A stretch of 64,000 bases of DNA from Bacilli bacterium (GTDB lineage Bacteria; Bacillota_I; Bacilli_A; RFN20; CAG-826). A model generated the notes under the pieces. It did not search any database, was not told the DNA's origin, and saw only the letters and a program-made list of their open reading frames with translations. The DNA is taken from the NCBI GenBank assembly GCA_017635465.1, contig JAGBLL010000110.1:4908-68907 (forward strand). The letters run 5' to 3'. Numbering within the stretch: the stretch's first letter is position 1; each line of letters starts with the position of its first letter. This document shows positions 24,621 to 43,494 of the stretch, one piece after another. Position numbers and translations under genes: made by a program.

Positions 24621-24697
24621 GCGCTTGTAGCTCAGCTGGATAGAGCGCTTCCCTCCTAAGGAAGAAGTCGGGCGTTCAAATCGTCTCAAGCGCGCCA
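24621..24697 (+). tRNA. tRNA-Arg (anticodon CCU)
   Basis: Cloverleaf folded by hand. Acceptor GCGCTTG/CAAGCGC, anticodon stem CTTCC/GGAAG with loop CTCCTAA, encoded CCA. Confidence 0.9.
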
Positions 24698-24800: not shown

Positions 24801-24876
24801 GGGTCCGTAGCTCACCTGGGAGAGCGCCTCCATGGCATGGAGGAGGTAGCGAGTTCGATCCTCGTCGGATCCACCA
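24801..24876 (+). tRNA. tRNA-Ala (anticodon GGC)
   Basis: Acceptor GGGTCCG/CGGATCC with the G3:U70 identity pair. Anticodon loop ATGGCAT, encoded CCA. Confidence 0.9.
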
Positions 24877-25670: not shown

Positions 25671-25946
25671 ATGACACAAGCGTTACCAAAGGTACTACCA
25701 GTTAATGAACTTAAGAATACAGCCAATATAATGAAAACATGCCAAGAAAGCCCAGTTCCTATTGTTATTACTAGAAACGGTTATGGAGAAGCTGTCATGA
25801 TGAGCATTGCTCTTTATGAAGAATTGTTCGCTAAGGTTCAAGCAGCCACTTTAATCAATGAAGGAATTGATGAAATCGAAAAAGGCGCTAAAGGTATGGA
25901 CGGTGATGAATTCTTTAATCGCATGAACAAAAAGTATGGAAAGTAA
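25671..25946 (+). CDS. type II antitoxin, Phd/YefM family
   Basis: 91 aa with the PVPIVITRNGYGEAVMMS..YEEL pattern. Overlaps the toxin start by 11 nt. Confidence 0.8.
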   Translation: MTQALPKVLPVNELKNTANIMKTCQESPVPIVITRNGYGEAVMMSIALYEELFAKVQAATLINEGIDEIEKGAKGMDGDEFFNRMNKKYGK

Positions 25947-26247
25947 ATATACTTTAAATATTTATCCTTCTACACAACTAGATTTGGATAAAATCTTTGC
26001 TTACATTTATAACGATTTATCAAATCCAAAAGCTGCCATTGATTTAATTGATACTTTTCGTATATCTTTTAATAATCTACGTTATTTTCCTGAGAGCAAT
26101 CCATTAGTTAATAACGAATATGTAAAAGATAAGTCGCTGCGTAAGCTTCTTGTTAAAAACTACATTGCCTTTTATCGTATTAGAGGCTACGAAATTCAAA
26201 TCGTCAGAGTTCTTTATGGAATGAGCAATTATCAAATGCTTCTCTAG
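25936..26247 (+). CDS. type II toxin, RelE/ParE family
   Basis: 103 aa. ParE-like architecture (..FPESNP..., IAFYRI...I.IVRVLYG). Confidence 0.8.
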   Translation: MESKYTLNIYPSTQLDLDKIFAYIYNDLSNPKAAIDLIDTFRISFNNLRYFPESNPLVNNEYVKDKSLRKLLVKNYIAFYRIRGYEIQIVRVLYGMSNYQMLL

Positions 26248-26921: not shown

Positions 26922-27437
26922 ATGAAAGCTGCTTTCAAAATGAATGTGACCATCAAGACTGCCAAACTGTTTCTTCAAGGCGACGAAGAAGCAATCTCTA
27001 GTGTATATCGAAGTTATCGCTCATTGCTTTACTTCATTATCGCTACTTATCTAAATCAAAAAGAAGATTGCGATGACGTCTACCAAAATGTATTTGTAAA
27101 AATACTCGATAGAAGAAATGGAGTTAAAGATCCTTCTTCCTTGCATTCCTACTTGTGCACAATGGCGAAAAACGAAGCGATTGATTACGCTAAAAAACGC
27201 TCTCGCGAACATGGTAGTGATGTCTTAGAAGATATGTGCGCGGATAACCAAGTAACGCAATTAGATTACTTCCTTCCTTACGATTTAACTAAGGAAGAGA
27301 AAATGATTGTCGGTTATCGGTTAACATTCGGTCTATCTTGGCAAGAAATTAATGAGCTAACAGGTATACCACTTGGCACTCTCAAATACCGTTATTCTCA
27401 AGCTATTGATAAAGTCAAAAGGAGTTTAAAAAGATGA
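26922..27437 (+). CDS. ECF-like sigma-70 family RNA polymerase sigma factor
   Basis: Region 2 (DDVYQNVFVKIL...MAKNEAIDYAKKR) and region 4 HTH (LSWQEINELTGIPLGTLKYRYSQA) only. The start could instead be the ATG at 26940. Confidence 0.85.
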   Translation: MKAAFKMNVTIKTAKLFLQGDEEAISSVYRSYRSLLYFIIATYLNQKEDCDDVYQNVFVKILDRRNGVKDPSSLHSYLCTMAKNEAIDYAKKRSREHGSDVLEDMCADNQVTQLDYFLPYDLTKEEKMIVGYRLTFGLSWQEINELTGIPLGTLKYRYSQAIDKVKRSLKR

Positions 27438-29275
27438 AAAGAATTGAAAAAGAAATCAAAAAGAACAGTACGAAACTTATTGAATCATCATTACCAGAAA
27501 TCAGTTCTTTAGATAATATTCCTACAAAAGTTAAAAAGAATAATCGTCTACCTTTATTCTTTATTCCTGCTGGAGCTCTTGCTTTAGCAGCAGTGGCAAT
27601 CATGATTCCTTTACTCATGAAACAAGTAGTGCCAGCGCAGTTACCATCCTCACCAGCATCAAATAATTACTCTTCAATCAATTATTACAATAGCAATAAC
27701 GTTGTTAATAGCAATAATACTGGTGACAGTGTTCCTCAAAATCCTCAAACTAATCACACATACCATTTTGATTTTGCTAATTACAAACCAACATTTAGTG
27801 ATTTTAACGAAATCGCATATTATTCCTATATTGCTTATCAAGGCAATCAAAACGTTTCACCACAAAAGCACAATAAAGCAATGCTTAACGATATAGCGGA
27901 AGAGCAAGAAGAGCATGTTAGTTCATCTTATATTGATGCTTATGGAAGAAAACATTATCCGCTTCCTCTAACAGATGAATACACATTCTCTAACTTTGTC
28001 TTTTTTGAATTCGATTCTGAAGGCTGTCATTTCTTAGAAGAAAGAATAGGCAATGGACACATCCATGGCCTAGCTCTTAAATTTAGCTATATGAATGAAA
28101 ATGTGCCAATCTTACAAAGTGAAGAAATGCTCATATTGAAAAACGAAGGTCGCTATTATTCTTGCTTATGCAATGGTGGTGGTAATAACGGACTTGACAA
28201 TAGAATGTTTATTCAATTCTCTGCTCATAAGGTAATTGAAGGTTTTGATATTGTTAAAGACGCCACCAATAAAAGATATATCGAATTAGGCTTTGAAACT
28301 TTTAACGACTACGAATCACTAGATAGTATCACTATTGAAGGATCATCATATCCTATTATTGCGGAATCAGTTCATTATGATAACGTATCAGTTACCTGTT
28401 CTTTCGAGGATTTAAAGGAACAATTAGAACTAAATCCTGAATATAAAGCCGCTGATGGCTATGGTGGTGTTGATGTCCTTGTTTATGATGCTGAGCACCC
28501 AGAGAGTAACAGCTTCACATTAGATGAATTTGAAGGCACATTCAGTGTTAATGGAAACACAATTACTTTGAACAATGAGGAAGTTGTTTCCATTAATGGA
28601 ATTACAAAAGTTTATGCTTCTGAAATCAATAAAGATTCACATCGTGATTTAGTCTTTGAAACAGTTAATAATACAATCCGCTCTATCAATGTCTTTGATA
28701 TTTATAATAAGAAACTAATCTATCAAGAATCCAATAATGCCATCGATAGATATGGCGATCATTATCTTGACATGATGAATGGCCGTTTAGTTATTAAATT
28801 ACTTGAATATGGCATGACTGATGATCGCTATTTGATTGATTATGGTTACTTCTCATACTATGGAATTAAACAGCTCACTATTGTTTATCAAAACTATTTT
28901 GAACTCACAGAAATGAGAGCCCACCGTGTCCTTGAAAATGATAATGAAACGCTAGTGCCATTTATCGATACTCATTATCGTTTCAATAGCAACACTCCAT
29001 ATATTCTTGAAATTAAGATGAATAAATATCCTGGTAATAAAAATCCTAATTATCCAAGCATTGGTGATCATCAAATTGTTTGTAAACCATTTGCGGAAGT
29101 TGAAGATATGCCAAATATGTCTCCTGAATTTACTTTCTTATCAATGGAAAATGGTATCTACCGTTATCAAATTAAGTTCCAAGAAAAAGGATATTCATAT
29201 TACACATTCTCTTTCTACCGTTTCAGCTTTGATTTAAGAGTGGCAGTGGATGAACCTGTTACGGTTGAACAGTAA
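27434..29275 (+). CDS. putative anti-sigma / sensor membrane protein with a large novel extracytoplasmic domain
   Basis: ATGA overlap with the sigma stop. About 38-aa cytoplasmic N-terminus, one TM helix (about 27551-27620), an N/S-rich linker, then about 500 aa with no motif I recognise. Confidence 0.45.
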   Translation: MKRIEKEIKKNSTKLIESSLPEISSLDNIPTKVKKNNRLPLFFIPAGALALAAVAIMIPLLMKQVVPAQLPSSPASNNYSSINYYNSNNVVNSNNTGDSVPQNPQTNHTYHFDFANYKPTFSDFNEIAYYSYIAYQGNQNVSPQKHNKAMLNDIAEEQEEHVSSSYIDAYGRKHYPLPLTDEYTFSNFVFFEFDSEGCHFLEERIGNGHIHGLALKFSYMNENVPILQSEEMLILKNEGRYYSCLCNGGGNNGLDNRMFIQFSAHKVIEGFDIVKDATNKRYIELGFETFNDYESLDSITIEGSSYPIIAESVHYDNVSVTCSFEDLKEQLELNPEYKAADGYGGVDVLVYDAEHPESNSFTLDEFEGTFSVNGNTITLNNEEVVSINGITKVYASEINKDSHRDLVFETVNNTIRSINVFDIYNKKLIYQESNNAIDRYGDHYLDMMNGRLVIKLLEYGMTDDRYLIDYGYFSYYGIKQLTIVYQNYFELTEMRAHRVLENDNETLVPFIDTHYRFNSNTPYILEIKMNKYPGNKNPNYPSIGDHQIVCKPFAEVEDMPNMSPEFTFLSMENGIYRYQIKFQEKGYSYYTFSFYRFSFDLRVAVDEPVTVEQ

Positions 29276-29428
29276 GTAACTATACAGAATTATAAGGGCA
29301 AATTTCCGCCCCTTTTGTTTATGTAAAGAATAAACAAGTTAGTTTTACTAAATATCGATATATCAATTAAGAAAAAATACTTTTTTCACTATGAAATATA
29401 CTTATGCATGCGCTAAAATAATTTTAAA

Positions 29429-30019
29429 GTGAATTTGAAAGTTTATTTACTGGATTATCGAGCCCTCCCTTTATCTTTTCTTATGGATTCTAAATATCTA
29501 TCAGAACTAGAAAAGATATCATTTCAAAAATATAAAAACGAAAACGTTAAAAAAGAAAAAATAGTGTCCGCTATTTTGAAAAATAAATATATTGGTGATT
29601 ACCATTTCAACGAATACGGTAAACCAATAAGCAATAATAAATATTTCAATATCAGCCATAGTGATGGTTATATTGCTTTAGTTATTGATCAAGTGCCTGT
29701 GGGCATTGATATTGAAAATATTAGAAATGCTGAAGAAGATTTAAGAAACTATATTTCTAATGACGAAGAAAAGAAATACATCCATGATGATGAATCTTTC
29801 TTTGAAGTATGGACTAATAAAGAAGCATTAGTAAAGGCTAATGGAAATGGTATTAATCAAAAGATTAAAACTATTCAATCATTACCACTTAACGCTATTA
29901 GAACATACAACAACAAAACATATTTTAATAAAACAATCAAATATCAGAATTTAGTCATCACTGTATCAAGGGCAAGTAGTGATGATTTTAATATTAATAT
30001 CATGGAGGAGTATATTTAA
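29429..30019 (+). CDS. Sfp-type 4'-phosphopantetheinyl transferase
   Basis: FNISHSDGY, GIDIE and W.NKEALVKA motifs. GTG (29429) or TTG (29435) start. Stop lies 1 nt before the NRPS ATG. Confidence 0.85.
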   Translation: MNLKVYLLDYRALPLSFLMDSKYLSELEKISFQKYKNENVKKEKIVSAILKNKYIGDYHFNEYGKPISNNKYFNISHSDGYIALVIDQVPVGIDIENIRNAEEDLRNYISNDEEKKYIHDDESFFEVWTNKEALVKANGNGINQKIKTIQSLPLNAIRTYNNKTYFNKTIKYQNLVITVSRASSDDFNINIMEEYI

Positions 30020-30020
30020 T

Positions 30021-33000
30021 ATGGTCAAAACATACCCTTTAAGTAAGAGTGAAGAAGGTATTTATATCTCTTCATTAGCGGGTGGCGACGCTTATAATCT
30101 CGCTCATTTAGTGTCATTAGGGAGAGACGTTACAAAAGAGCAAGTTGAAGCTGCTTTAAACAAAGTGGTGGAAGCCCATCCTTATATTTTTACTGTTCTT
30201 TCTAATGATGAAAACGGTAACGTTGTTAAAAGCATTAAACAACAAAAGATTGTTCTTGAATGTGAAGAAGTTAAAGAACTTAACATCGTTTCTAAACCAT
30301 ATCAATTATTGGATTCACCTTTATATCGCTTCAAACTTTATAAAGTGAAAGATGAATATGTTTTCTATTTTGATTTTTATCATCTCATCATGGATGGTAC
30401 ATCTATTAAAGTATTCATTGATGATTTCTTTTCTTCGCTTGAAGGTAAAAAATTAATCAAAGAACAAAGTGACGCGAATGAATATGCATTAAAGGAACAA
30501 AAAGATTTAGCGAAACCAATTTATCAAGAATGCAAAGACTACTATGAAAAACTAGTGGGCGATGTGGAAACTGATTCCTCCCTCGTCGAAGATAAAAAAG
30601 ACGAAACAGTTTCATATCAATCGTTCAAACAAAAATTATCAATTAAAAATAAACAGATTAAAGAAATCACTAATAAATTAGGCCTTAAAACATCTACTTA
30701 TTTCTTAGGTGCTTTCTCCTATTTATTAATGAAATTTAGCATGGATACTGCTTCTTTATTCTTAACAGTTAATAACGCTAGAACAAAAGAAGTAGCGAGA
30801 AGCTTTGGTAGCTTTGTTAAAACATATCCTTTATATGTTAATTTCGAAAATATCGATAATGTTCCTGACTTATTAAAATTGGTGAATGAAGAGAATATCG
30901 AAAACGTTAAACATAATACATATCCATATTCCTCATTAGTGAAAGACTTTGGTGTTTCTTCTGATGTCTTATTCGCTTATCAAGGTGACTATTTCTATAA
31001 TGGTTCATATAACGGCAAGCAAATTACTGTTGAACAACTTGATAGAAAAGATGGCAAAGAAAAACTCGCAATTGAATGTCACCGTTTAGGCGATGAATTC
31101 TTACTCTGGGTTGAATACCGCAGTGATATTTATTATGAAAGCACAATCCGTCATTTCATTAAGTTATTTGATATCGTCTTAAATGAATTCCTAGCGTTAG
31201 GAAAATTAGATGATATTAACTTTGTTAATAAAGAAGATTTAGAATTGATGGATTCTTTCAATATCACTGATCCTAAATATCTTGATACTTCAAAAACAAT
31301 ACTTGATGACTTTGAAGATTGCGTAAAGAAATTCCCAAATAATTACGCAGTTGTCTTTAAAGATAAAAAATACACATATAAAGAGGTGGATGAAATTACC
31401 ACAAGAATCGCTAATGAATTAATTAAGCATGGTGCGGGAAGAGAGAAAGTTGTCTCTATCTTAATTCATAAATCTGAATATGTTGTCCTCGCTTCTTTAG
31501 CGGTCATTAAATCTGGTTCTGCTTATCAACCACTTGATCCAACATATCCAGAAGATCGATTAAATTTCATGGTCAAAGACTCATCCGCGATTATCTTAAT
31601 TAGAGATGATGATTTAGGCGACCTAATCCATGAATTTAAAGGACATGAAATATTAACAAGTTCCTTATTATCTTTAAAAGATGATACCCCAATTAAAACT
31701 ATACCAGAATCTAAAGACTTATTCATTATGCTTTATACATCTGGCTCCACTGGTTTACCAAAAGGTGTCATGCTTGAACATGGCAATATCCATGCTTTCT
31801 GTATCTATCATAGAGAAATTCAAGAAATCGATGAAAATTCACATTGCAGTGCCTATGCTTCATATGGTTTTGACGCGGATATGATGGACTTATATCCCGC
31901 TTTAACAAGTGGTGCAACAGTTTATATCATTCCTGATGAAATGCGTTTAAACCTCGTTGAACTTGGTGAATATTTTAACGCTAATAACATCACTCACTCA
32001 TTTATTACTACCCAAGTCGGTAGACAATTCGCTAGTGAAATTGAATGTTCGTCACTCAAATATTTCGCTGTCGGTGGCGAAAAGCTCGTTCCAATTGAAC
32101 CTCCAAAAGGTTATAGATTCTTTAATATCTATGGTCCAACCGAAGGTACAGTTTATTGCACTAGCCAAGAAGTTGATAAATTATATTACCGTATTCCAAT
32201 TGGTAAACCGTTACCAACATACAAAATGTATGTTTTAGATAAGAATAAAAAGAGATTACCATTCTTATGTAATGGTGAACTCTATATCTCTGGTCCACAA
32301 GTGGCAAGAGGTTACTTAAATAGAGAAAAAGAAAATAAAGAAGCTTTCTTAACTAACCCATTCACCAAAGAAAAAGGCTACACCAATTTCTATAAAACAG
32401 GTGATATCGTGAGAATGCTTCCAGATGGCACAATTGACTTTATCGGCCGTAAAGATGGACAAGTCAAGATTAGAGGCTTCCGTATTGAATTATCAGAAGT
32501 CGAAGGTGTCATTAGAGAATTCCCTGGCATTAAAGACGCGACAATTAAGGATTTCACCGATCCAAGTGGTGTGAAATATATCGTTGCTTATATCGTTAGT
32601 GACAAACAAATCAATGTTGAAGAGCTAAATCAATATATCTTATCAAAGAAACCGCCTTATATGGTTCCTGCTTACACAATGCAAATTGATAAGATTCCAC
32701 TTAACCAAAACCAAAAAGTTAATAAACGCGCTTTACCACAAGTCGAACTTAAAGCGGAAGAAATCGTCCCACCAGAAGGTGAAGATGAACAAATTATCTT
32801 TGATATCTTAAAAGATGTTTTAGGTCATGACCAATTCGGTGTCACAAGTGATATTTATAACGTTGGTTTAACTTCCGTTTCTTCAATTAGATTTAGTATT
32901 CTCTTATCAAAGAAATTCAATAAACCTGTGGAAAACGAAGACCTAAAGTCACATCCAACAATCCGCTCCTTAGCGGCGTTCTTAAACGCTAAAGAAGGCG

Positions 33001-36000
33001 ACAAGGTATATGATTTACGTGAAGAATATCCAATTAGTAAGACACAAGAAGGTGTCTTCATTGAATGCGCTTCTAAAGCGGATTCCACAACTTATAACAT
33101 TCCATATTTATTTAAACTTGATAAACGCATCGACTTAAATAAATTAAAAGAAGCTTTAATCAAAGCGCTTGATAACCATCCATATCTCAAGACCACATTA
33201 AAGATGAATGAAGACGGCGATATTCTCGCTCTTAGAAAAGAAACAGAAAGTGTTGTCTCCATCATTAAAGAAGATATCGTTAAAGAGAAATTAATCCGTC
33301 CATTTAAACTATTGGATGCTCCTTTATATCGCATTGAAATATATGAAGGTAAAGATAATTATCTCTATTTAGATTTCCATCACATCATCTGTGACGGCAC
33401 TAGTGAAGCAATCTTCTTATCTGACTTAAACAAAGTGTTCAAAGGTGAACAATTAACTAAAGAAGAATTCACTGGCTTTGAAGTGGCTTTAAAAGAAAAA
33501 GAAGACTTACAAAGCGATAAACTTCCTAAAGCTAAAGAATATTATCACAAAGTGCTTAAGGACATCGATGGTGAATATATACCTAAAAAAGACTTAAAAG
33601 TCGCTAAAGAGCATAGACTCGCTTCTATCGATTACGCTTTGAAATTAGACAATAACAAAGTTAACGAATACGTTAAATCTAATAAACTCACTAATAATGC
33701 TTTATTTAACTTTGCATTTGGTTATACATTATCTAAATTCATTTATCGTAAAGATGCTTTATATGTGACTATTTATAATGGTCGAAAATCTTCTAAATTA
33801 TTTAATACCACATCGATGCTAGTTAAAACTTTCCCAGTTTATCTATCTTATGAAGAAGATGATGAAATCATTAAGAAAGTGAGCTTCATCAAAGATGAAT
33901 TAAGTGGCTTAGAAGAACATGATATCTATTCATTCGCGGATATCGTTAAAGATTATGATATATCCGCGGATGTAATGTTTGCCTATCAAGGTGATGATTT
34001 CTCATTCAAAGAAATCGGTGGTTATCCAGTCGAATCAATCTTGCTTGAAAGTGATACCACTAAAACACCATTTGGTTTAGATATCTTCCTAGAAGATGGT
34101 GTCTTTAGAGCCCACTATGAATACGATATCGCTATTTATAATGAGAATAGTATCGCTGCATTTAATAGATTATTTGAACTCGTTTTAAATGAAATCTTAG
34201 TTAAAAAGCAAATCAAAGACATCAATACTCTTCCAGAAGAAGATAAGAAATTATACGCCATCACAAACGATACTGACGTTGAAATTCCTAACGATGTTAC
34301 TGTAAATAAGATATTTGAAAAACAAGTCGAATTACATAAAGATAAAGTCGCAGTTATCGATGTCTGTAGCCAATTTACATATCAAGAATTAAATGCATTA
34401 GCAAACAAAGTAGCTCACACGTTAATCGATAATGGTGTGACTAAGAACCAAACAGTGGTGATGTTAATGCCTAGATTAAAAGAAGCTTATGCGGTGAGAC
34501 AAGGTATTGTTAAATCCGGTGGAGCCTTCTTACCAATCGATCCAAAATATCCAGATGAACGTGTTGGCTATATTATTGGAAATTCTCAAACTCAATACGT
34601 CATTACCACCAAGAAAGTCTTAGAAGAAAAAGAACAATTATTAAAAGACGCGAAAGTTAAAGTGTTCTTAATCGAAGATATCGCTAAATCAAATAAAGCG
34701 GACAATCCAAACGTTAAGATTAGTCAAAAAGATTTAGCGTATGTCATCTATACATCAGGTAGTACAGGCAAACCAAAAGGCGTGATGATTTCACACCGCA
34801 ATATCCTTAACTACGTTTTAGATGGCAACAATTTAACAACCGCTGAATATCGTTATATTGGGGAAGAATGTGTGAGTTGCTCATTTGCTTCATTATCATT
34901 CGATGCTTCTTTGCAAGAAGAATTCGTCCCATTAACTCATGGTTATACTGTTGTTATCGCTAGTGAAGAAGAAATTGAAAATCCATTACTTCTCGCTCAA
35001 ACACTCAAAAAGCATGGTGTAAATATCATGTTTATGACACCATCATTTGTCTCTAACTTATTAGATATTCCACAGTTCGTTGAAGCATTACGTAATTTCA
35101 AAGTCCTAGATATGGGCGCGGAAGCAGTGCCAATCGAATTATGTCAAAAACTTAGAGGTTTAGGCGTTAACGCTCAAATCAATAATGGGTATGGCCCAAC
35201 TGAAACAACAATTACATCAACATATAGTACTGTTAAAGATGAATACATGACCATTGGTCGACCAGTTGGTAACACTAAAGCTTATATCTTAGATAAAGCG
35301 GGTCATATTTTACCAATCAACGCTATTGGTGATTTAACTCTCGCTGGTGAATCTGTTGGTATGGGATATTTAGGTAATGAAGAAAAAACCAAACAAGTAT
35401 TCATTGAATTAAACGGTTTACGTGCCTATAGAACTGGTGACTTAGCAAGAATTAATGGCGATGGTAACATCGAATTCTTTGGTCGACTTGATAACCAAGT
35501 TAAATTAAGAGGTTTGCGTGTTGAACTTGATGAAATTGAAAAGGTTATCAACACCTATCCAGGCATGTCCACAAGTATCGTTATTGTGAAAAACGCCCCA
35601 GAAGGTGATTACTTAGTGGCCTATTTCGTTGCTAGCAAAGAAATTGATAAAGATGATTTAACCGCTCATATTTCTAAATCATTAACGCCATATATGATTC
35701 CAAAGGCGATGATGCAATTAGATAAATTACCGTTAACAGCGAATGGCAAAGTCGATAAGAAAAACTTGCCAGCCATTCAAGTTAACGAAACTAAAAAAGA
35801 AATCAAAGAAGCAAGTAACGAACTTGAAAAGAAACTCGTTGCCTTATTCCAAAAAGCATTAGCTAATCCAAATGTCGGTGTGGATGATGACTTCTTTGAA
35901 CTCGGTGGTACATCATTAAGTGTTTCTAAGATTGCGATGCTCGCATTAAATGAAAACTTACCGATCGCTTATGGTGATGTCTTTGAGTATCCAACTGTCT

Positions 36001-37238
36001 TACAACTTGAAGAACACATCAATTCTTTACAAGGTAATGCCAAAAAACAAGATGAAAAGAAAGAAGAATATGAATTCGCTTCACTTAAACATAACGTTGT
36101 GGAAGAAGTTGATGACATCAAGATTGATTTCGAATATAAGAAAGTCTTACTCGCTGGCGCTACTGGCTTCTTAGGTATCCACTTATTATATGAATTAATT
36201 CAACAAAAGAATCATGTCGTGGCCTTAGTTAGAGGTGGTAGCTTATCCGCTAAAGATCGCTTGTTAGCGATGTTAACATATTATTTTGATTCACCATTCG
36301 AAGAAGAAATTGAACAATATGTTGAAGTCGTTGACGCTGATGTCACTAATAATGATTTATATGAAAAATTAAAAGATTATGATTTCAATATCATCATTAA
36401 CTCCGCGGCGATTGTTAAACACTTCGCTAACGATGACATCATTGAAAGAGTGAATGTCGGTGGTGTGAAGAATCTCATCGAAATTGCTAAAGCAAAGAAA
36501 GCGAGAATTATTCAAATCTCAACACTTTCTGTCGCTGGTGAAAACATCGATAATAAGTTCCCATCTTCTTTCAAAATCAAAGAAAACATGCTCGACTTTG
36601 GTCAAGATGTCTCTAATAAATATGTCCATTCTAAATTCAACGGAGAAAAAGCTATCTTAGAAGCTATTGATAAGGATGGCGTGGACGCCAAGATCATCCG
36701 TGTTGGTAACTTAATGAGTAGACAAAGAGATGGTGAATTCCAGGCTAACTCCATTACTAACGGCTTTATGCGTGACTTAAAAGGTTATGTTACGCTCCAT
36801 GAATTCCCAGTTAATTCAATGGATGGCACAGTTGACTTCTCACCAATCGATGAAGTCGCTAAGACAATTATCTTGTTATCCAAGACACCAAGTAAATTTA
36901 CAGTCTTCCATTCCGCTAACTCACATATGGTGGAAATGGGTGATATTATCTATGTCTTAAACGAACTTGGCTTTGATATTAAAGTTGTCCCAGATAACGA
37001 ATTCCTTGAAGGTATGAAACGCATGATGATGGATGACACTAAGAGTATGCTTGTTTCTTCCTTAATTTCATATTCCAGTAGCGACATGCATACACATCAA
37101 TTTATTGGCTCTGATAATGAATTTACAAATAAAGCGTTGTATCATTTAGCGTATAAATGGCCAATTACTGACTATGAATATCTAAAGAACGCCATCATCT
37201 CACTTCAAACACTAGACTTCTTTGAAAGGAACGACTAA
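30021..37238 (+). CDS. bimodular nonribosomal peptide synthetase, C-A-T-C-A-T-R (terminal thioester reductase)
   Basis: Start at ATG 30021 with SD ggaggag at 30004-30010.
- C1: YHLIMDG (30378-30398).
- A1: YTSGSTGLPKG (31734-31766), NIYGPTE, GRKDGQVKIRGFRIEL.
- T1: GLTS, Ser codon 32873-32875.
- C2: HHIICDG (33378-33398).
- A2: YTSGSTGKPKG (34749-34781), NGYGPTE, GRLDNQVKLRGLRVEL.
- T2: GGTS, Ser codon 35913-35915.
- R: GATGFLG (36156-36176) and YVHSK (36621-36635). Confidence 0.95.
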   Translation: MVKTYPLSKSEEGIYISSLAGGDAYNLAHLVSLGRDVTKEQVEAALNKVVEAHPYIFTVLSNDENGNVVKSIKQQKIVLECEEVKELNIVSKPYQLLDSPLYRFKLYKVKDEYVFYFDFYHLIMDGTSIKVFIDDFFSSLEGKKLIKEQSDANEYALKEQKDLAKPIYQECKDYYEKLVGDVETDSSLVEDKKDETVSYQSFKQKLSIKNKQIKEITNKLGLKTSTYFLGAFSYLLMKFSMDTASLFLTVNNARTKEVARSFGSFVKTYPLYVNFENIDNVPDLLKLVNEENIENVKHNTYPYSSLVKDFGVSSDVLFAYQGDYFYNGSYNGKQITVEQLDRKDGKEKLAIECHRLGDEFLLWVEYRSDIYYESTIRHFIKLFDIVLNEFLALGKLDDINFVNKEDLELMDSFNITDPKYLDTSKTILDDFEDCVKKFPNNYAVVFKDKKYTYKEVDEITTRIANELIKHGAGREKVVSILIHKSEYVVLASLAVIKSGSAYQPLDPTYPEDRLNFMVKDSSAIILIRDDDLGDLIHEFKGHEILTSSLLSLKDDTPIKTIPESKDLFIMLYTSGSTGLPKGVMLEHGNIHAFCIYHREIQEIDENSHCSAYASYGFDADMMDLYPALTSGATVYIIPDEMRLNLVELGEYFNANNITHSFITTQVGRQFASEIECSSLKYFAVGGEKLVPIEPPKGYRFFNIYGPTEGTVYCTSQEVDKLYYRIPIGKPLPTYKMYVLDKNKKRLPFLCNGELYISGPQVARGYLNREKENKEAFLTNPFTKEKGYTNFYKTGDIVRMLPDGTIDFIGRKDGQVKIRGFRIELSEVEGVIREFPGIKDATIKDFTDPSGVKYIVAYIVSDKQINVEELNQYILSKKPPYMVPAYTMQIDKIPLNQNQKVNKRALPQVELKAEEIVPPEGEDEQIIFDILKDVLGHDQFGVTSDIYNVGLTSVSSIRFSILLSKKFNKPVENEDLKSHPTIRSLAAFLNAKEGDKVYDLREEYPISKTQEGVFIECASKADSTTYNIPYLFKLDKRIDLNKLKEALIKALDNHPYLKTTLKMNEDGDILALRKETESVVSIIKEDIVKEKLIRPFKLLDAPLYRIEIYEGKDNYLYLDFHHIICDGTSEAIFLSDLNKVFKGEQLTKEEFTGFEVALKEKEDLQSDKLPKAKEYYHKVLKDIDGEYIPKKDLKVAKEHRLASIDYALKLDNNKVNEYVKSNKLTNNALFNFAFGYTLSKFIYRKDALYVTIYNGRKSSKLFNTTSMLVKTFPVYLSYEEDDEIIKKVSFIKDELSGLEEHDIYSFADIVKDYDISADVMFAYQGDDFSFKEIGGYPVESILLESDTTKTPFGLDIFLEDGVFRAHYEYDIAIYNENSIAAFNRLFELVLNEILVKKQIKDINTLPEEDKKLYAITNDTDVEIPNDVTVNKIFEKQVELHKDKVAVIDVCSQFTYQELNALANKVAHTLIDNGVTKNQTVVMLMPRLKEAYAVRQGIVKSGGAFLPIDPKYPDERVGYIIGNSQTQYVITTKKVLEEKEQLLKDAKVKVFLIEDIAKSNKADNPNVKISQKDLAYVIYTSGSTGKPKGVMISHRNILNYVLDGNNLTTAEYRYIGEECVSCSFASLSFDASLQEEFVPLTHGYTVVIASEEEIENPLLLAQTLKKHGVNIMFMTPSFVSNLLDIPQFVEALRNFKVLDMGAEAVPIELCQKLRGLGVNAQINNGYGPTETTITSTYSTVKDEYMTIGRPVGNTKAYILDKAGHILPINAIGDLTLAGESVGMGYLGNEEKTKQVFIELNGLRAYRTGDLARINGDGNIEFFGRLDNQVKLRGLRVELDEIEKVINTYPGMSTSIVIVKNAPEGDYLVAYFVASKEIDKDDLTAHISKSLTPYMIPKAMMQLDKLPLTANGKVDKKNLPAIQVNETKKEIKEASNELEKKLVALFQKALANPNVGVDDDFFELGGTSLSVSKIAMLALNENLPIAYGDVFEYPTVLQLEEHINSLQGNAKKQDEKKEEYEFASLKHNVVEEVDDIKIDFEYKKVLLAGATGFLGIHLLYELIQQKNHVVALVRGGSLSAKDRLLAMLTYYFDSPFEEEIEQYVEVVDADVTNNDLYEKLKDYDFNIIINSAAIVKHFANDDIIERVNVGGVKNLIEIAKAKKARIIQISTLSVAGENIDNKFPSSFKIKENMLDFGQDVSNKYVHSKFNGEKAILEAIDKDGVDAKIIRVGNLMSRQRDGEFQANSITNGFMRDLKGYVTLHEFPVNSMDGTVDFSPIDEVAKTIILLSKTPSKFTVFHSANSHMVEMGDIIYVLNELGFDIKVVPDNEFLEGMKRMMMDDTKSMLVSSLISYSSSDMHTHQFIGSDNEFTNKALYHLAYKWPITDYEYLKNAIISLQTLDFFERND

Positions 37239-37240
37239 TT

Positions 37241-38983
37241 GTGGAGAGAAATAGTAAACTAGTTAACCGTAAATTCATTCATTATCTCATTCCGTCGATA
37301 TTGATGATTTTTGCGATGCAATTTTCTTCCTTACTTGATGGTATCTTAATTGGTAACTTGATTTCTGGCGAAGCTCTTGCGGCGACATCTTTAGTTATGC
37401 CAGTACTATATATCGTCCAAGCTCCTGGTTTTGCTTTAGGAGTAGGGGGATCAATTGTCGTTGCTAATAAATTAGGTAAAAGAGATATCGAAGGGGCAAA
37501 AAAGACGTTCTCTATATCAATTATTTTAGGTGTTGGAATATCTATATTATTTGCCGCGATATCATTCTTTGTTTCCGCACCATTAGCAAAGCTATTTGGT
37601 GAAGCATCATATGAATTATCTTATCCATATATCTATATGTATTTATTGACCGATCCAATTATTACTTTAGCTTTGCTTCTTGGTTCCTTTATGGCGGTTG
37701 ATAATAACCCAAAATTATCATCAATATTCTTTATTATTTCTAATGTCGCGAAAGTCGGCTTAGAGTTCATCTTTATTAAATTATTTAATTGGGGAATGTA
37801 TGGCGCCGCTTTATCTACCGGAGCGGGTTTCGTCGTCGCGTTTGTCGCTTTACCTTTCTACATTAAAAACGATAAGCGCATGCTTGGCTTAACTTTCAAG
37901 GTTAAAGGCACGAAGATATTTGAAATTATTAAATCTTCATCAACATCAGGTTTGAATCTTATTTTAACCGCGATTCAAATGCTGATTGTTAATATCTTTT
38001 TAGGCAAGTTAGTCACTAATCCAGTCGACTTATTAGCCTTTGGTTTAATCGCTAATATTGTCTTCGTCTTTGACTTATTCTGTGGTGGTATCTTAAATGT
38101 TATTCCTAATATTGTGGGTATCTTTTATGGTGAAAAAGATTATTATTCACTGAGATCAGTTACTAGAAAAATATTCTGGATTAATATTATTGTGGCCGCG
38201 GTTATTACCGCAGTTATCGCTGCCTTACCAAATGTCTATTCATTTATCTTTGGCTATACTGAACAAACAGATATGAGTTATATTGCACTCTTAATTAGAA
38301 TCTATCTCATCTCATTATTACCATCAGAAATTAGTAAATTCTCGATGAATTACTATCCATCCATTGATAAGAATCTACCTTCTTTAATTACTGTTTTCTT
38401 AAGAGAAGCTGTCTTAGTGTTGCCATTAACACTAGTGTTATTATTCACTAATGGTGTTTTAGGTTATTGCACTGCCTACGCTATTACGGAAGTAGCGACA
38501 GTCTTAATTACTTATATATTTATCCTTATATACAATAAAAAGAAAAATACATATTCCATCTTCATGTTTGAAAGAGGAGATGTTGAATCTTTCGATACTT
38601 CTTTAGATAACAACATTAATAATGCTTCTATTGTTTCTGAACAACTCACTAACTACGCTCGTAGTATTGGTGTGGCGGAAAGAGAAAGCCAAATCGTTGG
38701 TCTAGCCGCAGAAGAAATAGTGGGTAATATCATCACATATGGTTATAAGCATAAACATAAAAACTATATCGATATTTCATTAAGGAAAATTAACGATGTT
38801 CTCTTATTAAGAATTAGAGATGATGGTATGCCATTTGACCCAACTAAATATGAATTTGATAATGATGAGAATTATTCCACAAGTGGCATACAGTTAATTA
38901 ATAAATTAACTGATAAGATGACTTATATGCGTGTATTAAGTCTTAATAACACGATATTTGAAATCAATATCAGGGGGAACTAG
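37241..38983 (+). CDS. MATE-family efflux transporter fused to a C-terminal SpoIIAB/RsbW-like GHKL ATPase domain
   Basis: GTG start 2 nt after the NRPS stop. About 440 aa with 12 TM helices (MATE-like). From about 38575 the tail has an N-box EEIVGNIITYGY, a G1-like RDDGMPFDP and a G2-like SGIQLI. Confidence 0.78.
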   Translation: MERNSKLVNRKFIHYLIPSILMIFAMQFSSLLDGILIGNLISGEALAATSLVMPVLYIVQAPGFALGVGGSIVVANKLGKRDIEGAKKTFSISIILGVGISILFAAISFFVSAPLAKLFGEASYELSYPYIYMYLLTDPIITLALLLGSFMAVDNNPKLSSIFFIISNVAKVGLEFIFIKLFNWGMYGAALSTGAGFVVAFVALPFYIKNDKRMLGLTFKVKGTKIFEIIKSSSTSGLNLILTAIQMLIVNIFLGKLVTNPVDLLAFGLIANIVFVFDLFCGGILNVIPNIVGIFYGEKDYYSLRSVTRKIFWINIIVAAVITAVIAALPNVYSFIFGYTEQTDMSYIALLIRIYLISLLPSEISKFSMNYYPSIDKNLPSLITVFLREAVLVLPLTLVLLFTNGVLGYCTAYAITEVATVLITYIFILIYNKKKNTYSIFMFERGDVESFDTSLDNNINNASIVSEQLTNYARSIGVAERESQIVGLAAEEIVGNIITYGYKHKHKNYIDISLRKINDVLLLRIRDDGMPFDPTKYEFDNDENYSTSGIQLINKLTDKMTYMRVLSLNNTIFEINIRGN

Positions 38984-39269: not shown

Positions 39270-41165
39270 ATGAAAAAGAGATTAATTCCTTTAGTGGCAT
39301 TAAGCGCGCTTTTAATGGGCGGTTTAACAACCCTTGCAGCATGTAACACTAAAGGCCAATCAGGTGAATCACAAACATCTGCAAAAACAGGTTCACAATT
39401 CAAAGTGTCATATGACCAAAGCGAAGAATATACAGTCGCTGGTTTAAAAGAATCATATGCCGCTGGTGAAAAAGTCACCTTCACTGTCACAGTTAATGAC
39501 AAAACAAAAGAAATTTCCGCTGTCAGAGCGGGTGGTACAAAACTTACTCCTGACGCAAATGGACAATATTCATTTGATATGCCAGAAGAAGACACACGTT
39601 TAAGAATCACATTAAGTGATATTCACGTTGCCAAATTAACTGCTTCCTATACAGGTAGCTTAGTCCAAGGACAAACATTAACAATCACCACAAAGATTGA
39701 TGATGCTAATAACGACACATTCACAGTCACCGCTAAAACGGGTGCTAGCTTAGTCCAAATCACAAATCACCAAGTTAAATTACTCAATGCTGGTAATGTC
39801 GTCTTAGAAGTCAGCGCGACAAAAGATGGTGCAACATTAAAAGATGAATTATCGTTCACCATTATTGAAAGTGAAGCAAGTTTAGGTACAGATATTGCTT
39901 ACCATAACTATCAATTTAAAAATGGTGCAGAATCATTAGCAAATGATAACCGTGGCACATTAATTTATTGGTTTGGTGATGGTGGTAGTGTCTCCTCATT
40001 CAAATATGAAAACGGTAAATTCGACGTTCAATACACAATGGGTTGGGCATTCTATGGTGTGCAATTCTTCTACTCATTACCATATGCAAAAGCAGGTGAC
40101 ACATATAAACTCAGATGGGAAGTCAATTCCGATGCTGATGGTATCATCACCATTAACAGTACAAGAGTCAACTTAAAGAAAGGTGATAACATCGTTGGTG
40201 TTGATATCACTCAAGGTGCTCAAGCTACTGTTTCTATCCAATTAGGTTATATTGAAAATGAAGAACAACATCCATTTACCGATGGTGCTCACTTAACATT
40301 TAAACCTTTCCGTCTTTATGACACAAATAAAGACCATAAATATCACAGAGTTTCATTCACCTCTGGTAATGAAGCCCTCAAAACAATTTATGTTTTAGAT
40401 GGTCAAAAAGTTAAAGCTCCAGAAGTCAAAGCTCCAGAAGGTAAGATTTTTGCTGGTTTCTATAACGGCGAAACTAAGTTTGATGAAAACGTCGCTCCAA
40501 CAGCGGATGTCACTTACGCTGCTAAGATTATCGATAAATCAGAAGCAGAAACCGTTCTTGTCCAATTAAAAATTGGTTCTAAAGTTTTAGCGAAAATTGA
40601 TGTTGTTAAAGGCGATAAAGTCGTTATTCCAAGTGGCTTAGATTATGGCTTTGGTCAAAAATTAAAAGGTCTTTATACCGATGCCGCTTTCACAACAGCT
40701 TTTAGCCTCGATACTCCAGTTCAAAGTGACTTAGACTTATACGTTAAGACACAAATCGCTTTTGAATCTACATATGTCCACGATGTGGGTGGCATTCCAG
40801 CGGAATGGATCACATATAATGATGATGGTTCTATCACATTGAAGTTCAAAGGCTGGGGTCACTCTGATAAGTGGCACATCCAAGCTAACTTCACAGATAG
40901 TATGATTAGAGGCCAAGCAGGCGAATTCTATCAAATTTCCTTCACATACTCCATCAACCAAGAAGGCGCGGGCGCACAAGTCTATGATGGTAACACCTTA
41001 GACAATACTGGCTTAGATGTCGGTTCTAATAAAGAAGCTACTTTAACATATGAAGGTGGCCCACACGTTGGTGACTTCAAGTTAACATTTGAATTTGGTA
41101 GCATCGACTTAGACGCTGATGTTGAATTCACATTACACAAAATTAGCATCGCAAAAGTTTCTTAA
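39270..41165 (+). CDS. surface lipoprotein with Ig-like, Flg_new-like repeat and CBM-like modules (putative glycan-binding protein)
   Basis: Lipobox LAAC. Big_2-like segment. Two segments resemble Listeria-Bacteroides repeats (..GFYNGETKFDENV.., ..LKGLYTDAAFTTAF..LDLYVK). Two Trp/aromatic-rich beta-sandwich-like regions. Confidence 0.6.
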   Translation: MKKRLIPLVALSALLMGGLTTLAACNTKGQSGESQTSAKTGSQFKVSYDQSEEYTVAGLKESYAAGEKVTFTVTVNDKTKEISAVRAGGTKLTPDANGQYSFDMPEEDTRLRITLSDIHVAKLTASYTGSLVQGQTLTITTKIDDANNDTFTVTAKTGASLVQITNHQVKLLNAGNVVLEVSATKDGATLKDELSFTIIESEASLGTDIAYHNYQFKNGAESLANDNRGTLIYWFGDGGSVSSFKYENGKFDVQYTMGWAFYGVQFFYSLPYAKAGDTYKLRWEVNSDADGIITINSTRVNLKKGDNIVGVDITQGAQATVSIQLGYIENEEQHPFTDGAHLTFKPFRLYDTNKDHKYHRVSFTSGNEALKTIYVLDGQKVKAPEVKAPEGKIFAGFYNGETKFDENVAPTADVTYAAKIIDKSEAETVLVQLKIGSKVLAKIDVVKGDKVVIPSGLDYGFGQKLKGLYTDAAFTTAFSLDTPVQSDLDLYVKTQIAFESTYVHDVGGIPAEWITYNDDGSITLKFKGWGHSDKWHIQANFTDSMIRGQAGEFYQISFTYSINQEGAGAQVYDGNTLDNTGLDVGSNKEATLTYEGGPHVGDFKLTFEFGSIDLDADVEFTLHKISIAKVS

Positions 41166-41179
41166 TTAACTTATTTAAA

Positions 41180-41206
41180 AGGGGGAGTTCTCGCTCCCCC
41201 TCCTTT
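41180..41206 (+). terminator. GC-rich hairpin plus T-tract abutting the GH16 start codon
   Basis: agggggag-ttctcg-ctccccct then cttttt. The ATG of the next gene is at 41209. Confidence 0.6.
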
Positions 41207-41208
41207 TT

Positions 41209-42162
41209 ATGAAAAAGATATTTAATACTCTTCCATTATTAACATTAACACTAACTGCTTGTTCATTAACTAACTCTAGTTCTAATTCTAGTAGCAGTGA
41301 TGCTTCATCATTAGATGTTTTAAGTTCGTCTACTCATGAAGAATCATTACCAGAAATACCTGAATTTTTAGAAGACTATTGTCTATTTTGGCATGATGAA
41401 TTTGATGGCGATACTTTAAGTGATAACTGGGAACCACAAATTGGGGACGGCACTAACTATAACGTTTATCGCTGGGGCAATAATGAAGAGCAATATTATA
41501 AAAAGGAAAACGCTACAGTCAGTGGCGGTCGTTTACACATTACCGCTAAAAAAGAAAAAACTACCTATTACACCGAAAAGGAAGAAGAAAGAACATACGA
41601 ATACACAAGTGCGCGTTTAAGAACTAAAGGTAAGATTACTACAACCTATGGTTACATTGAAGCGCGTATTAGACTTCCAGAAGGTACAGGTATGTGGCCA
41701 GCATTTTGGATGTTACCGGAAAGTAATTTTGAAGGTATGTGGTGGCCAACAAGTGGTGAAATTGACATCATGGAAGCTAAAGGTCGTTTATTAGATAAAT
41801 TTGGTGCGACTATCCATACTGGTAACGCTAATAATCAAGATTATTACAAATTCAAAGAATACACATTTTCTGATGAAGAAGATGATATTACAGCGTTCCA
41901 TAACTATGGTGTTTTATGGTCAAAAGAAGGTTTTACCTTTTATGTTGATGAAAAGCCATTCTTCTCACTCACTCCAAAAGATTATCAAAATAGAAACGAA
42001 TTATATACTGAATCAGAAAGCGCACCATTTGATCGCCCGTTCCATATCCTACTCAATTTAGCGGTTGGTGGTAACTACGATGGTGGTCGTTCACCTGAAC
42101 AAAACTTCAAACAAGCAGAAATGCTCGTGGACTATGTCCGTATCTATCAAAAGAATAAATAA
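41209..42162 (+). CDS. GH16 beta-glucanase (laminarinase/licheninase-type) lipoprotein
   Basis: Lipobox LTAC. Catalytic EIDIME motif and WPAFWML motif. Confidence 0.88.
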   Translation: MKKIFNTLPLLTLTLTACSLTNSSSNSSSSDASSLDVLSSSTHEESLPEIPEFLEDYCLFWHDEFDGDTLSDNWEPQIGDGTNYNVYRWGNNEEQYYKKENATVSGGRLHITAKKEKTTYYTEKEEERTYEYTSARLRTKGKITTTYGYIEARIRLPEGTGMWPAFWMLPESNFEGMWWPTSGEIDIMEAKGRLLDKFGATIHTGNANNQDYYKFKEYTFSDEEDDITAFHNYGVLWSKEGFTFYVDEKPFFSLTPKDYQNRNELYTESESAPFDRPFHILLNLAVGGNYDGGRSPEQNFKQAEMLVDYVRIYQKNK

Positions 42163-42164
42163 TT

Positions 42165-43481
42165 ATGAATAGAATAAATAAATCATTAATTAATATTTTT
42201 AAAGGATTAACACTCACCAGTGCTTTTTTGCTTGTTAGCTGTAACGCTGCTACTTCTTCATCAATTTATTCATATCAACCATATGTCATTGATTTAGATG
42301 GTGAATTTACTAACGATGATTATCTAACCGTTAAAGGTAATAAATTAGTTAATAAAAACAATGAAGAGATTCAATTAAAAGGCGTTAATGTCGGTGGCTT
42401 ATTTGTCACTGAAAGTTGGATGAGCGCTCCTCGTATGAGTGAAGGCAAAACTGATCATCTCACTTTAACAAACACTCTTTATCAACGTTTTGGCGAAGAA
42501 AAGACATTAAAGATTTGGTCTAGTTTTAGAGAATATTTCTGGAGTGAAGAAGATTTAGAAAACTGTGAGGAAATGGGTATTAATACCATTCGTATTCCTT
42601 TCTCCTATATGTCTTTAGATCCTGCTTTCCATAATGTTCCTAAAAAAGAAGGACAAGAATTTAATTTTGATGCCTTAGATGAATTTGTTGAAGGCTGCGC
42701 TAGATATCATATCTATGTGATATTAGATCTTCATGGAGCCTATGGCTCACATAACGGTCAAGACCATTCAGGTGAAATGCTTTATGACGTTAGTGAAGTC
42801 GACTTCTTCTATAACGAAGAAAAGCAAAATAAAACAATCCATCTTTGGGAAGAAATCGCTAAACATTATAAAGATGTTAATTCTATCGCCGCTTATGATT
42901 TATTAAATGAACCAGGTGAAAAAGCCGGTTCCACAAGTGAAAGACATTGGGCTTTTTACGATAAATTATATGATGCAATTAGAAAAGTCGATAACGATCG
43001 ACCATTAATCATGGAATCTTGTTGGGATGGGGCAAATTTACCTAGCCCAAGTATATATCAATGGAATAATGTTATTTATTCATTCCATAACTATTCAGGT
43101 ACAAGTGATGTAACCGCTAACTTGAATAGCTTTAAAAATAAGCTAAACGGTGTTTATTCTCAAACATATGATGTGCCATTCTACATGGGTGAATTCTCAT
43201 GCTATGGCAGCCATGAAAGTTGGAGAACAACATTACAATATTTAAACGATGAAAACTGGCATTGGACAAGTTGGACATATAAATTAAGCCGCTATCCAGA
43301 AGCCTATCCAGGTTGGGCAATATATTATTCCAGCATGGACTTTATCTATTTTGATAGTGATTCTTACGAAGATATCTTAGTGAAACTAACTTATTTAAAA
43401 ACAAGTTCAAAGCAAACACAAAAGATGACTTTTGAAAACGGAAACACTCTTGAGAACATTTTTAAAACTTTTTCTAAATAA
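42165..43481 (+). CDS. GH5 family glycoside hydrolase lipoprotein (exo-beta-1,3-glucanase-like)
   Basis: Lipobox LVSC. Acid/base LLNEPG and nucleophile region YMGEFS. GVNVGGLFVTESWM resembles GH5 exo-glucanases. Confidence 0.8.
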   Translation: MNRINKSLINIFKGLTLTSAFLLVSCNAATSSSIYSYQPYVIDLDGEFTNDDYLTVKGNKLVNKNNEEIQLKGVNVGGLFVTESWMSAPRMSEGKTDHLTLTNTLYQRFGEEKTLKIWSSFREYFWSEEDLENCEEMGINTIRIPFSYMSLDPAFHNVPKKEGQEFNFDALDEFVEGCARYHIYVILDLHGAYGSHNGQDHSGEMLYDVSEVDFFYNEEKQNKTIHLWEEIAKHYKDVNSIAAYDLLNEPGEKAGSTSERHWAFYDKLYDAIRKVDNDRPLIMESCWDGANLPSPSIYQWNNVIYSFHNYSGTSDVTANLNSFKNKLNGVYSQTYDVPFYMGEFSCYGSHESWRTTLQYLNDENWHWTSWTYKLSRYPEAYPGWAIYYSSMDFIYFDSDSYEDILVKLTYLKTSSKQTQKMTFENGNTLENIFKTFSK

Positions 43482-43494
43482 ATAGGAGGCATTT

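Follow-up and report, generated by a model that had tools for sequence, protein, structure and literature searches.

A conserved three-gene operon of rumen Bacilli with a reductase-terminated nonribosomal peptide synthetase, predicted to make and export an N-acylated dipeptide aldehyde

Among the nonribosomal peptide synthetases (NRPSs) of gut bacteria, a dipeptide aldehyde family of 47 clusters from gut Clostridia was reportedly described by Guo et al. in 2017, and Schneider and Balskus are said to have added the ruminopeptin of R. bromii in 2018. Reductive release in such gut enzymes leads to dipeptide aldehydes that inhibit proteases, some of which carry an N-acyl tail (PMC8210680, PMC12327764). 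The order of condensation (C), adenylation (A), thiolation or carrier (T) and reductase (R) domains C-A-T-C-A-T-R has been called the canonical pyrazinone layout in a 2024 paper (PMC10979478), and Mru_0068 of the methanogen Methanobrevibacter ruminantium has been described as two C-A-T modules with a terminal reductase (PMC2812497). Here we analyze a locus within a stretch of 64,000 nucleotides from a Bacilli bacterium (assembly GCA_017635465.1, contig JAGBLL010000110.1, positions 4,908 to 68,907 of the forward strand; hereafter the window), in which an NRPS of this architecture forms a compact operon with a phosphopantetheinyl transferase and an exporter. On balance we favor the reading that the product of this operon, both made and exported by it, is a dipeptide aldehyde with an N-acyl group that belongs to the protease-inhibitor type.

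Positions 29429-38983 hold an intact operon of three genes that encode the 4'-phosphopantetheinyl transferase (PPTase), the NRPS and a MATE exporter; all three are read from the forward strand and are separated by gaps of 1-2 nt. The initial annotation had given the cluster as 29429-37238, and while the open reading frames (ORFs) within these limits are as stated there, the third gene of the operon (37241-38983) had been left out. The features are as follows, with NRPS residues numbered from the ATG at 30021 and with residue and code conservation counted, here and below, over 96 relatives of the NRPS family:

29429-30019, + strand: Sfp-type PPTase, 196 aa (PF01648, 41.8 bits)
30021-37238, + strand: NRPS, 2405 aa, C1-A1-T1-C2-A2-T2-R (Pfam and NCBIfam)
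30021-31295, + strand: C1, leading condensation domain, aa 1-425 (YHLIMDG, H121)
31296-32795, + strand: A1, adenylation domain, aa 426-925 (TIGR01733, 355.7 bits; SGSTGLPKG at 574; code DAMFAGIVYK)
32796-33020, + strand: T1, carrier domain (PF00550; Ser952 in GLTSV, Ser in 96/96 relatives)
33021-34295, + strand: C2, elongation condensation domain, aa 1001-1425 (PF00668, model positions 3-453 of 456; HHIICDG, H1121)
34296-35825, + strand: A2, adenylation domain, aa 1426-1935 (TIGR01733, 372.9 bits; SGSTGKPKG at 1579; code DAQFDGGITK, in which Asp299 is D1697)
35826-36050, + strand: T2, carrier domain (PF00550; Ser1965 in GGTSL, Ser in 96/96 relatives)
36126-37238, + strand: R, terminal thioester reductase, aa 2036-2405 (PF07993, 108 bits; GATGFLG at 2046-2052, R2071, T2168, Y2201, K2205)
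37241-38983, + strand: MATE efflux transporter fused to an HATPase_c_2 domain, 580 aa, starting two bases past the NRPS stop codon
38998-39030, + strand: hairpin with T-run resembling an intrinsic terminator, at the operon end (8-bp stem AGTCCTGA...TCAGGACT, then TTATTTTATA)

A single base separates the stop codon of the PPTase gene from the ATG of the NRPS gene, the two being translationally coupled, and a ribosome-binding site (GGAGGAG, 30004-30010) lies 5' of this ATG; the same start and length of the NRPS came out of a separate gene call, made on the 81.7-kb ENA metagenome contig from which the window derives. Pfam recognizes two Condensation (269 bits), two AMP-binding (485 bits), two PP-binding and two AMP-binding_C domains and, at the C-terminus, NAD_binding_4 (108 bits, where the gathering score is 20.1), with all scores far above chance level, so that the gene call and the Pfam and NCBIfam domains agree with what had been annotated at the outset, namely a single synthetase of 2405 aa with two complete modules in the order C-A-T-C-A-T-R. 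The PPTase had likewise been seen as dedicated to the NRPS, and it is indeed of the Sfp type (GIDIE at aa 92, WTNKEALVK at aa 128) and adjoins the NRPS in 40 related loci. All catalytic residues of the NRPS are present and invariant across the relatives, apart from the Gly of C1 (95/96), and the active-site motif of C2 is kept in 96/96. Against the closest locus, a 98% identical twin (L002; dS ~0.2-0.4), every NRPS domain including C1 is under strong purifying selection with a dN/dS ratio (omega) of 0.02-0.07, while that of the PPTase is 0.10.

Among the closest known systems is the aureusimine (pyrazinone) synthetase AusA/AusB (PznA) of Staphylococcus aureus, with which the window shares both the C-A-T-C-A-T-R order and the adjacent Sfp-type PPTase gene. 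The AusA model is the best NCBIfam match of the NRPS, and the R domains of the two proteins are homologous from end to end and share the Thr/Tyr/Lys triad. The NRPS is nevertheless not an AusA orthologue: it reaches 1073.8 bits against NF047350, for which the cutoff is 2500, the PPTase matches the AusB-like model NF047349 weakly (79.5 bits, cutoff 225), and identity in the C1 and R domains is ~27-30%. Moreover, the PPTase gene lies upstream of the NRPS gene in the window but downstream in S. aureus, the ausA locus has no gene for a MATE::HATPase protein, its leading C domain is dead whereas the C1 motif of the window is intact, and its A1 code DAFWLGGTF (Val) differs from the window codes DAMFAGIVY (A1) and DAQFDGGIT (A2). 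The gut Clostridia family and ruminopeptin, compared by their descriptions in PMC8210680, PMC12327764 and PMC10979478, are also bimodular, reductase-terminated NRPSs of anaerobic gut Firmicutes; the host of the window differs in belonging to a rumen Bacilli lineage. The overall dipeptide aldehyde logic of AusA and the gut enzymes that had been proposed for the locus is supported. As judged from its sequence, the cassette fits this class on all structural points that can be compared and is an uncharacterized member of it, not a new kind of system. It is set apart modestly by three features, namely an intact leading C domain, an invariant A2 code with Asp299 and the fusion of the pump with a kinase-like domain.

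The leading C domain bears on the question of N-acylation. The initial annotation had regarded AusA as A-T-C-A-T-R, the order in which it is commonly depicted, and the leading domain of the present NRPS as an extra one that pointed to N-acylation of residue 1. The S. aureus ausA locus compared here, which was found by matching an AusA R-domain fragment rebuilt from a PDB alignment to an S. aureus contig, also opens with a Pfam Condensation domain, in agreement with the layout given in PMC10979478. The domain is hence not extra, and its presence alone is no argument for N-acylation, because AusA has one too. N-acylation is still favored, though for a different reason, namely the intact active site of C1. 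At the HHxxxDG site, the leading C domain of AusA reads FHVSIFDD, with the second His changed to Val and the Gly to Asp, and a dead domain of this kind fits a free-amine product. In the C1 motif xHxxxDG, by contrast, 96/96 relatives have the second His and the Asp, and 95/96 have the Gly; omega of C1 is 0.07 against the 98% relative, where dS is unsaturated, and 0.10-0.20 when less close relatives are compared. Over 425 residues and among genomes that have diverged to 55% identity, a dead domain would not stay under such tight constraint. We conclude that C1 is probably an active domain that N-acylates the first residue. What is informative on N-acylation in clusters of this kind is the active site of the leading C domain, not the mere presence of the domain. 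As a separate observation, ausA is split in the S. aureus assembly examined (L070:3249-10443) into ORFs of 1935 aa and 480 aa.

The second element of the predicted product is the C-terminal aldehyde. The assignment of the terminal domain to reductases of the short-chain dehydrogenase/reductase (SDR) type, made initially from a GATGFLG and a YVHSK motif, is borne out, since both are found (aa 2046-2052 and 2201-2205) and the Thr/Tyr/Lys triad is intact, being present in 96/96 relatives. As to whether the domain matches thioester-reductase models and has a site for NAD(P)H, PF07993 is exceeded well beyond its gathering score and the Rossmann motif is present. Among solved structures, the best match is the PCP-R (peptidyl carrier protein-reductase) didomain of Mru_0351 from M. 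ruminantium (6vtj; 225 bits, 39% identity, full-length), and the aldehyde-forming AusA R domain (4f6c) also matches over its full length with 110 bits and 30% identity. The comparison thus supports a redox-competent SDR-type thioester reductase. A reading as a non-redox R* domain (Dieckmann cyclase) was considered and ruled out, as Tyr and Lys are intact in all of the relatives. That the domain is nearer to its counterpart in an archaeal rumen methanogen than to that of AusA is in line with an exchange of NRPSs between Methanobrevibacter and rumen Firmicutes, as reported earlier.

The adenylation domains give an indication of the two residues. Stachelhaus positions were read in the register of GrsA, which yields the textbook code DAWTIAAICK when residues are counted along the GrsA fragment; as a control, the identical procedure returned the textbook Val code DAFWLGGTF for A1 of AusA. 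In A1, the pocket residues of the code DAMFAGIVYK are all hydrophobic, the relatives show 34 different hydrophobic variants of it, and the domain is most like the A2-type domain of AusA, which takes Phe, Tyr or Leu. The A2 code DAQFDGGITK, on the other hand, is identical in 94/96 relatives, despite a whole-domain conservation no higher than that of A1. An alternative A2 register obtained with HMMER, which would replace Asp and Gly by L299 and M301, was rejected: two relatives have the canonical GGE where the others have GAE, and Asp is accordingly placed at position 299. Together with Gly301 and Gly322, the acidic Asp299 would suit a side chain that is long and either polar or cationic, such as that of Arg, Lys or Orn. 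The combination of a fixed A2 code with a variable A1 code hence points to a fixed polar, possibly basic aldehyde residue. A constant terminal and a drifting penultimate residue are what one would expect if the aldehyde residue (P1) had to match a single type of protease S1 pocket and the preceding residue (P2) was tuned. At the equivalent of A2, the nearest relatives from the Clostridia have other codes, namely DVQFYGGVF in Lachnospiraceae and DMKNLGTVS in a version from Ruminococcus, and DAQFDGGITK is seen in neither; Lys239 of the Ruminococcus code would suit an acidic substrate.

Taken together, a biosynthetic route can be proposed in which the PPTase would convert T1 and T2 to the holo form, A1 would load a large hydrophobic residue onto T1, and C1 would move an acyl group from an acyl-CoA or acyl-ACP (acyl carrier protein) of primary metabolism to the amine of this first residue. 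A2 would then load the fixed polar, possibly basic residue onto T2, C2 would make the peptide bond, and the R domain would use NAD(P)H to release the thioester as a C-terminal aldehyde, which the MATE pump would export. This aldehyde would inhibit proteases in a covalent-reversible manner, and its P1 residue would be constant in the family and its P2 residue variable between species. In this scheme, the acyl donor, the identities of both amino acids, the two-electron extent of the reduction, export by the MATE protein and protease inhibition are what we infer from sequence. With its predicted N-acyl group, hydrophobic P2 and C-terminal aldehyde, the product would resemble the N-acyl peptide argininals of the leupeptin type, a likeness at the level of the predicted structure, although leupeptin is a tripeptide and the predicted product a dipeptide.

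Several observations weigh against an N-acylated dipeptide aldehyde. At the first His position of C1, the window has a Tyr. The nearest relative of C1 is the C2 domain of the same protein (32% identity, E 5e-65), and its best match in the PDB is the elongation C domain of TycC (2jgp, 56.6 bits), the lipo-initiation starter C domain of SrfAA from the surfactin system (8f7f) reaching 36.8 bits. No gene for an acyl-activating enzyme or an ACP was found in the cassette or travelling with it in the related loci, so that the acyl donor would have to come from primary metabolism. C-A-T-C-A-T-R enzymes, namely AusA and, according to PMC10979478, the gut enzymes, give free-amine aldehydes or pyrazinones. 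As for the R domain, TIGR01746 is matched over model positions 1-370 of 371 with 147 bits, under its curated cutoff of 213, and the extent of reduction by R domains cannot be read from sequence (PMC8024701). Lastly, the A2 code DAQFDGGITK had no match in the literature searched, and the nearest A domains of solved structure pointed to no substrate.

The properties of C1 bear foremost on an AusA-like alternative, in which C1 would be non-acylating and the released dipeptide aldehyde, with its amine free, would be the short-lived active form before it cyclizes to an imine, dihydropyrazinone or pyrazinone. Its layout is the very one regarded as canonical for pyrazinones in PMC10979478 and the cassette brings no acyl-donor gene; in addition, C1 is the least conserved of the catalytic domains (mean identity 56.5% compared with 66% for C2), and at its first His position, where the relatives have H 74, Y 16, F 3 and Q 3 times, the residue is replaced in 22/96, with the window among them. 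However, neither the catalytic His nor the Gly is left in the leading C domain of AusA, whereas C1 has retained its second His, Asp and Gly at the frequencies given above under an omega of 0.07, and we therefore hold a free-amine product to be somewhat unlikely, if still to be reckoned with.

One can also imagine that the R domain carries out a four-electron reduction and takes the thioester via the aldehyde to the primary alcohol, which would result in an (N-acyl) dipeptide alcohol that has no warhead. R domains of the same fold in other NRPS systems, such as those of MxaA and Mycobacterium tuberculosis (Mtb), do make alcohols, and the determinant of the extent of reduction is not known (PMC8024701). 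Yet the R domain of the window scores 110 bits against AusA-R but only 59.5 bits against alcohol-forming MxaA-R and 31.8 bits against the R domain of Mtb, and an invariant code for the terminal residue would be better suited to a warhead, which makes an alcohol quite improbable. That C1 instead takes an aminoacyl or peptidyl chain from a separately encoded NRPS to give a longer peptide aldehyde would agree with its elongation-like character but is highly improbable, given that neither the 64-kb window nor the flanking regions of 66 related loci contain a partner A-T or NRPS gene, the recurrent neighbors being only PPTase, MATE, STAS and PP2C genes.

The third gene of the operon encodes a protein whose MATE part has ~12 transmembrane segments in its hydropathy profile (aa 1-445; PF01554, 105.6 bits) and is followed by a C-terminal HATPase_c_2 domain (aa ~463-580; PF13581, 53.7 bits) that resembles RsbW/SpoIIAB and hence the anti-sigma kinase type. 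This MATE::HATPase_c_2 fusion adjoins the NRPS in 47 loci, the Clostridia versions included, both domains occur in all of >100 homologous protein clusters, and both are under purifying selection (dN/dS 0.03 for MATE and 0.05 for HATPase). In relatives, it is followed downstream by a STAS protein of 98 aa and by a membrane SpoIIE/PP2C phosphatase of ~710 aa with an HATPase_c_2 tail of its own (e.g. L001:18969-21391); STAS was found in at least 21 and PP2C in at least 23 of the 30 related loci with enough downstream sequence. By sequence family, HATPase_c_2, STAS and PP2C make up a complete partner-switching set (RsbW/RsbV/RsbU-like) in most relatives. Neither a STAS nor a SpoIIE/PP2C homologue was found by tblastn in the 64 kb of the window, and the sequence compared for the 98% twin lacks both genes as well. 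The two loci represent a minimal three-gene version from which STAS and PP2C have been lost or relocated.

In relatives at 80-81% identity (L003:19405-27162; L021:8765-16509), a LytTR response regulator, two ABC exporter genes and a second STAS gene take the place of PP2C, and a LytTR regulator with a LytS-like histidine kinase is found near the cassette in seven to twelve other loci. From these gene contents it appears that the regulatory periphery of the cassette is swapped between lineages. To our knowledge, a MATE::RsbW-like fusion together with STAS and PP2C has been mentioned a single time, in passing, by the paper on the genome of M. ruminantium and has otherwise never been studied. There, Mru_0068 is flanked by genes for a MatE pump, an anti-sigma-factor antagonist and two serine phosphatases (PMC2812497), which is the same accessory set (MATE pump, STAS, PP2C) as in most relatives of the cassette. 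The differences are that the host of Mru_0068 and Mru_0351 is archaeal and that the window has no STAS and phosphatase genes, its kinase-like domain being fused to the pump.

The initial annotation had called such a cluster unusual for its organism, and this view does not hold. The closest genome match is a metagenome-assembled genome (MAG) from cattle rumen, that of the uncultured Erysipelotrichaceae RUG12224 (98% identity), and the NRPS occurs at 55-100% identity in 42 of 68 species-representative loci; these 42 come from MAGs that are labeled Erysipelotrichaceae, Bacilli, Bacillales or Acholeplasmatales. Where the titles of carriers name a source, it is mostly the fore-stomachs of cattle, sheep, goat, deer or buffalo. 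A protein database holds ~95 further clusters at 90% identity with equal length (2400-2450 aa), and across the 68 loci the order PPTase-NRPS-MATE is kept in dozens of genomes with differing flanks. Distant versions at 35-50% identity in MAGs of Lachnospiraceae, Ruminococcus and other Clostridia keep the pairing of NRPS and MATE::HATPase. Owing to its spread over 42 species-level loci and ~95 clusters, the cassette is best seen as a hallmark of the lineage, not as an oddity. Rumen genomes are rich in NRPS clusters, and those of methanogens and Firmicutes show similarity (PMC8241843); no study of the present NRPS family was found in the literature searched (RFN20 + NRPS; rumen peptide aldehyde NRPS).

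Trimodular relatives of ~3000-3440 aa (P0097-P0120; L022, L026, L038, L051-L053, L060, L062) share the same unusual A-domain subtype (FDxSxxEEF...D-x-GAEA...NGYGPTE), which serves as the loading domain in the ~3000-aa forms (A-T-C-A-T-C-A-T-R) and as the terminal one in those of 3438-3440 aa. One trimodular cluster of 2995 aa has 132 member sequences and is thus abundant in public metagenomes.

The surroundings of the operon are far less conserved. The flanking genes (an epimerase, two tRNAs, a Phd/ParE pair, an extracytoplasmic function (ECF) sigma factor, a 613-aa membrane protein, lipoproteins, GH16 and GH5) are common only to the 98% twin, with the epimerase occurring in one further relative as well. 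Two tRNA genes, Arg-CCT (24621-24697) and Ala-GGC (24801-24876), had been noted as adjacent to the cluster; they do exist, but they lie 4.5 kb upstream with unrelated genes between. Between these tRNAs and the cassette there is a type II toxin-antitoxin pair (25671-26247), in which a Phd/YefM antitoxin gene (91 aa) overlaps that of a ParE toxin (103 aa). A genomic island next to the tRNAs has no support, in that GC content equals that of the flanks and Pfam gives no match for the only candidate looked at, an ORF of 159 aa located between the tRNAs and the toxin-antitoxin genes, so that no integrase was found.

Closer to the operon, the gene of the ECF sigma factor (171 aa, 26922-27437) overlaps by 4 nt that of the 613-aa single-pass membrane protein (27434-29275), which has no Pfam match and is a candidate anti-sigma factor, and a weak GC hairpin with a T-run lies in the gap between this pair and the cassette. 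The pair was considered as regulators of the cluster and rejected, as it is present in the 98% twin and in no other locus. Upstream of the operon, no T-box or riboswitch was found, for which we had searched as a possible hint to the substrate. A scan for sigma-70-type promoters returned fewer sites than in shuffled controls and is therefore not informative, and the site at 29391-29419 is not claimed as a promoter. Downstream, 39270-45666 carries genes with lipoprotein signals (631 aa, 723 aa), a secreted GH16 protein (41209-42162) and a likewise secreted GH5 protein of the cellulase family (42165-43481); judged by these families, the block looks like one for the utilization of beta-glucan or plant polysaccharides, typical of a rumen fiber degrader.

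One could further speculate that the cassette defines a chemotype of rumen Bacilli, in which N-acyl-Xaa-argininals or -lysinals, i.e. leupeptin-like dipeptides with P1 set by the Asp299 pocket, are diversified only in P2 and in which export is gated post-translationally by STAS and PP2C acting on the kinase-like domain of the pump. As a whole, this extended scheme is clearly unlikely, but if true, the partner-switching gate on the pump would represent a regulatory coupling that is undescribed for any NRPS exporter.

Ruminal proteolysis limits the nitrogen efficiency of livestock. Gut anaerobes are known to make reactive protease inhibitors by means of dipeptide synthetases that end in a reductase, and the present clade is found in dozens of uncultured Bacilli species, mostly from ruminant guts. 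With 9.6 kb, the operon is compact enough for synthesis and expression, and a protease inhibitor that is secreted, widespread and fixed in its P1 residue would make a concrete mediator of ruminal proteolysis that can be tested.

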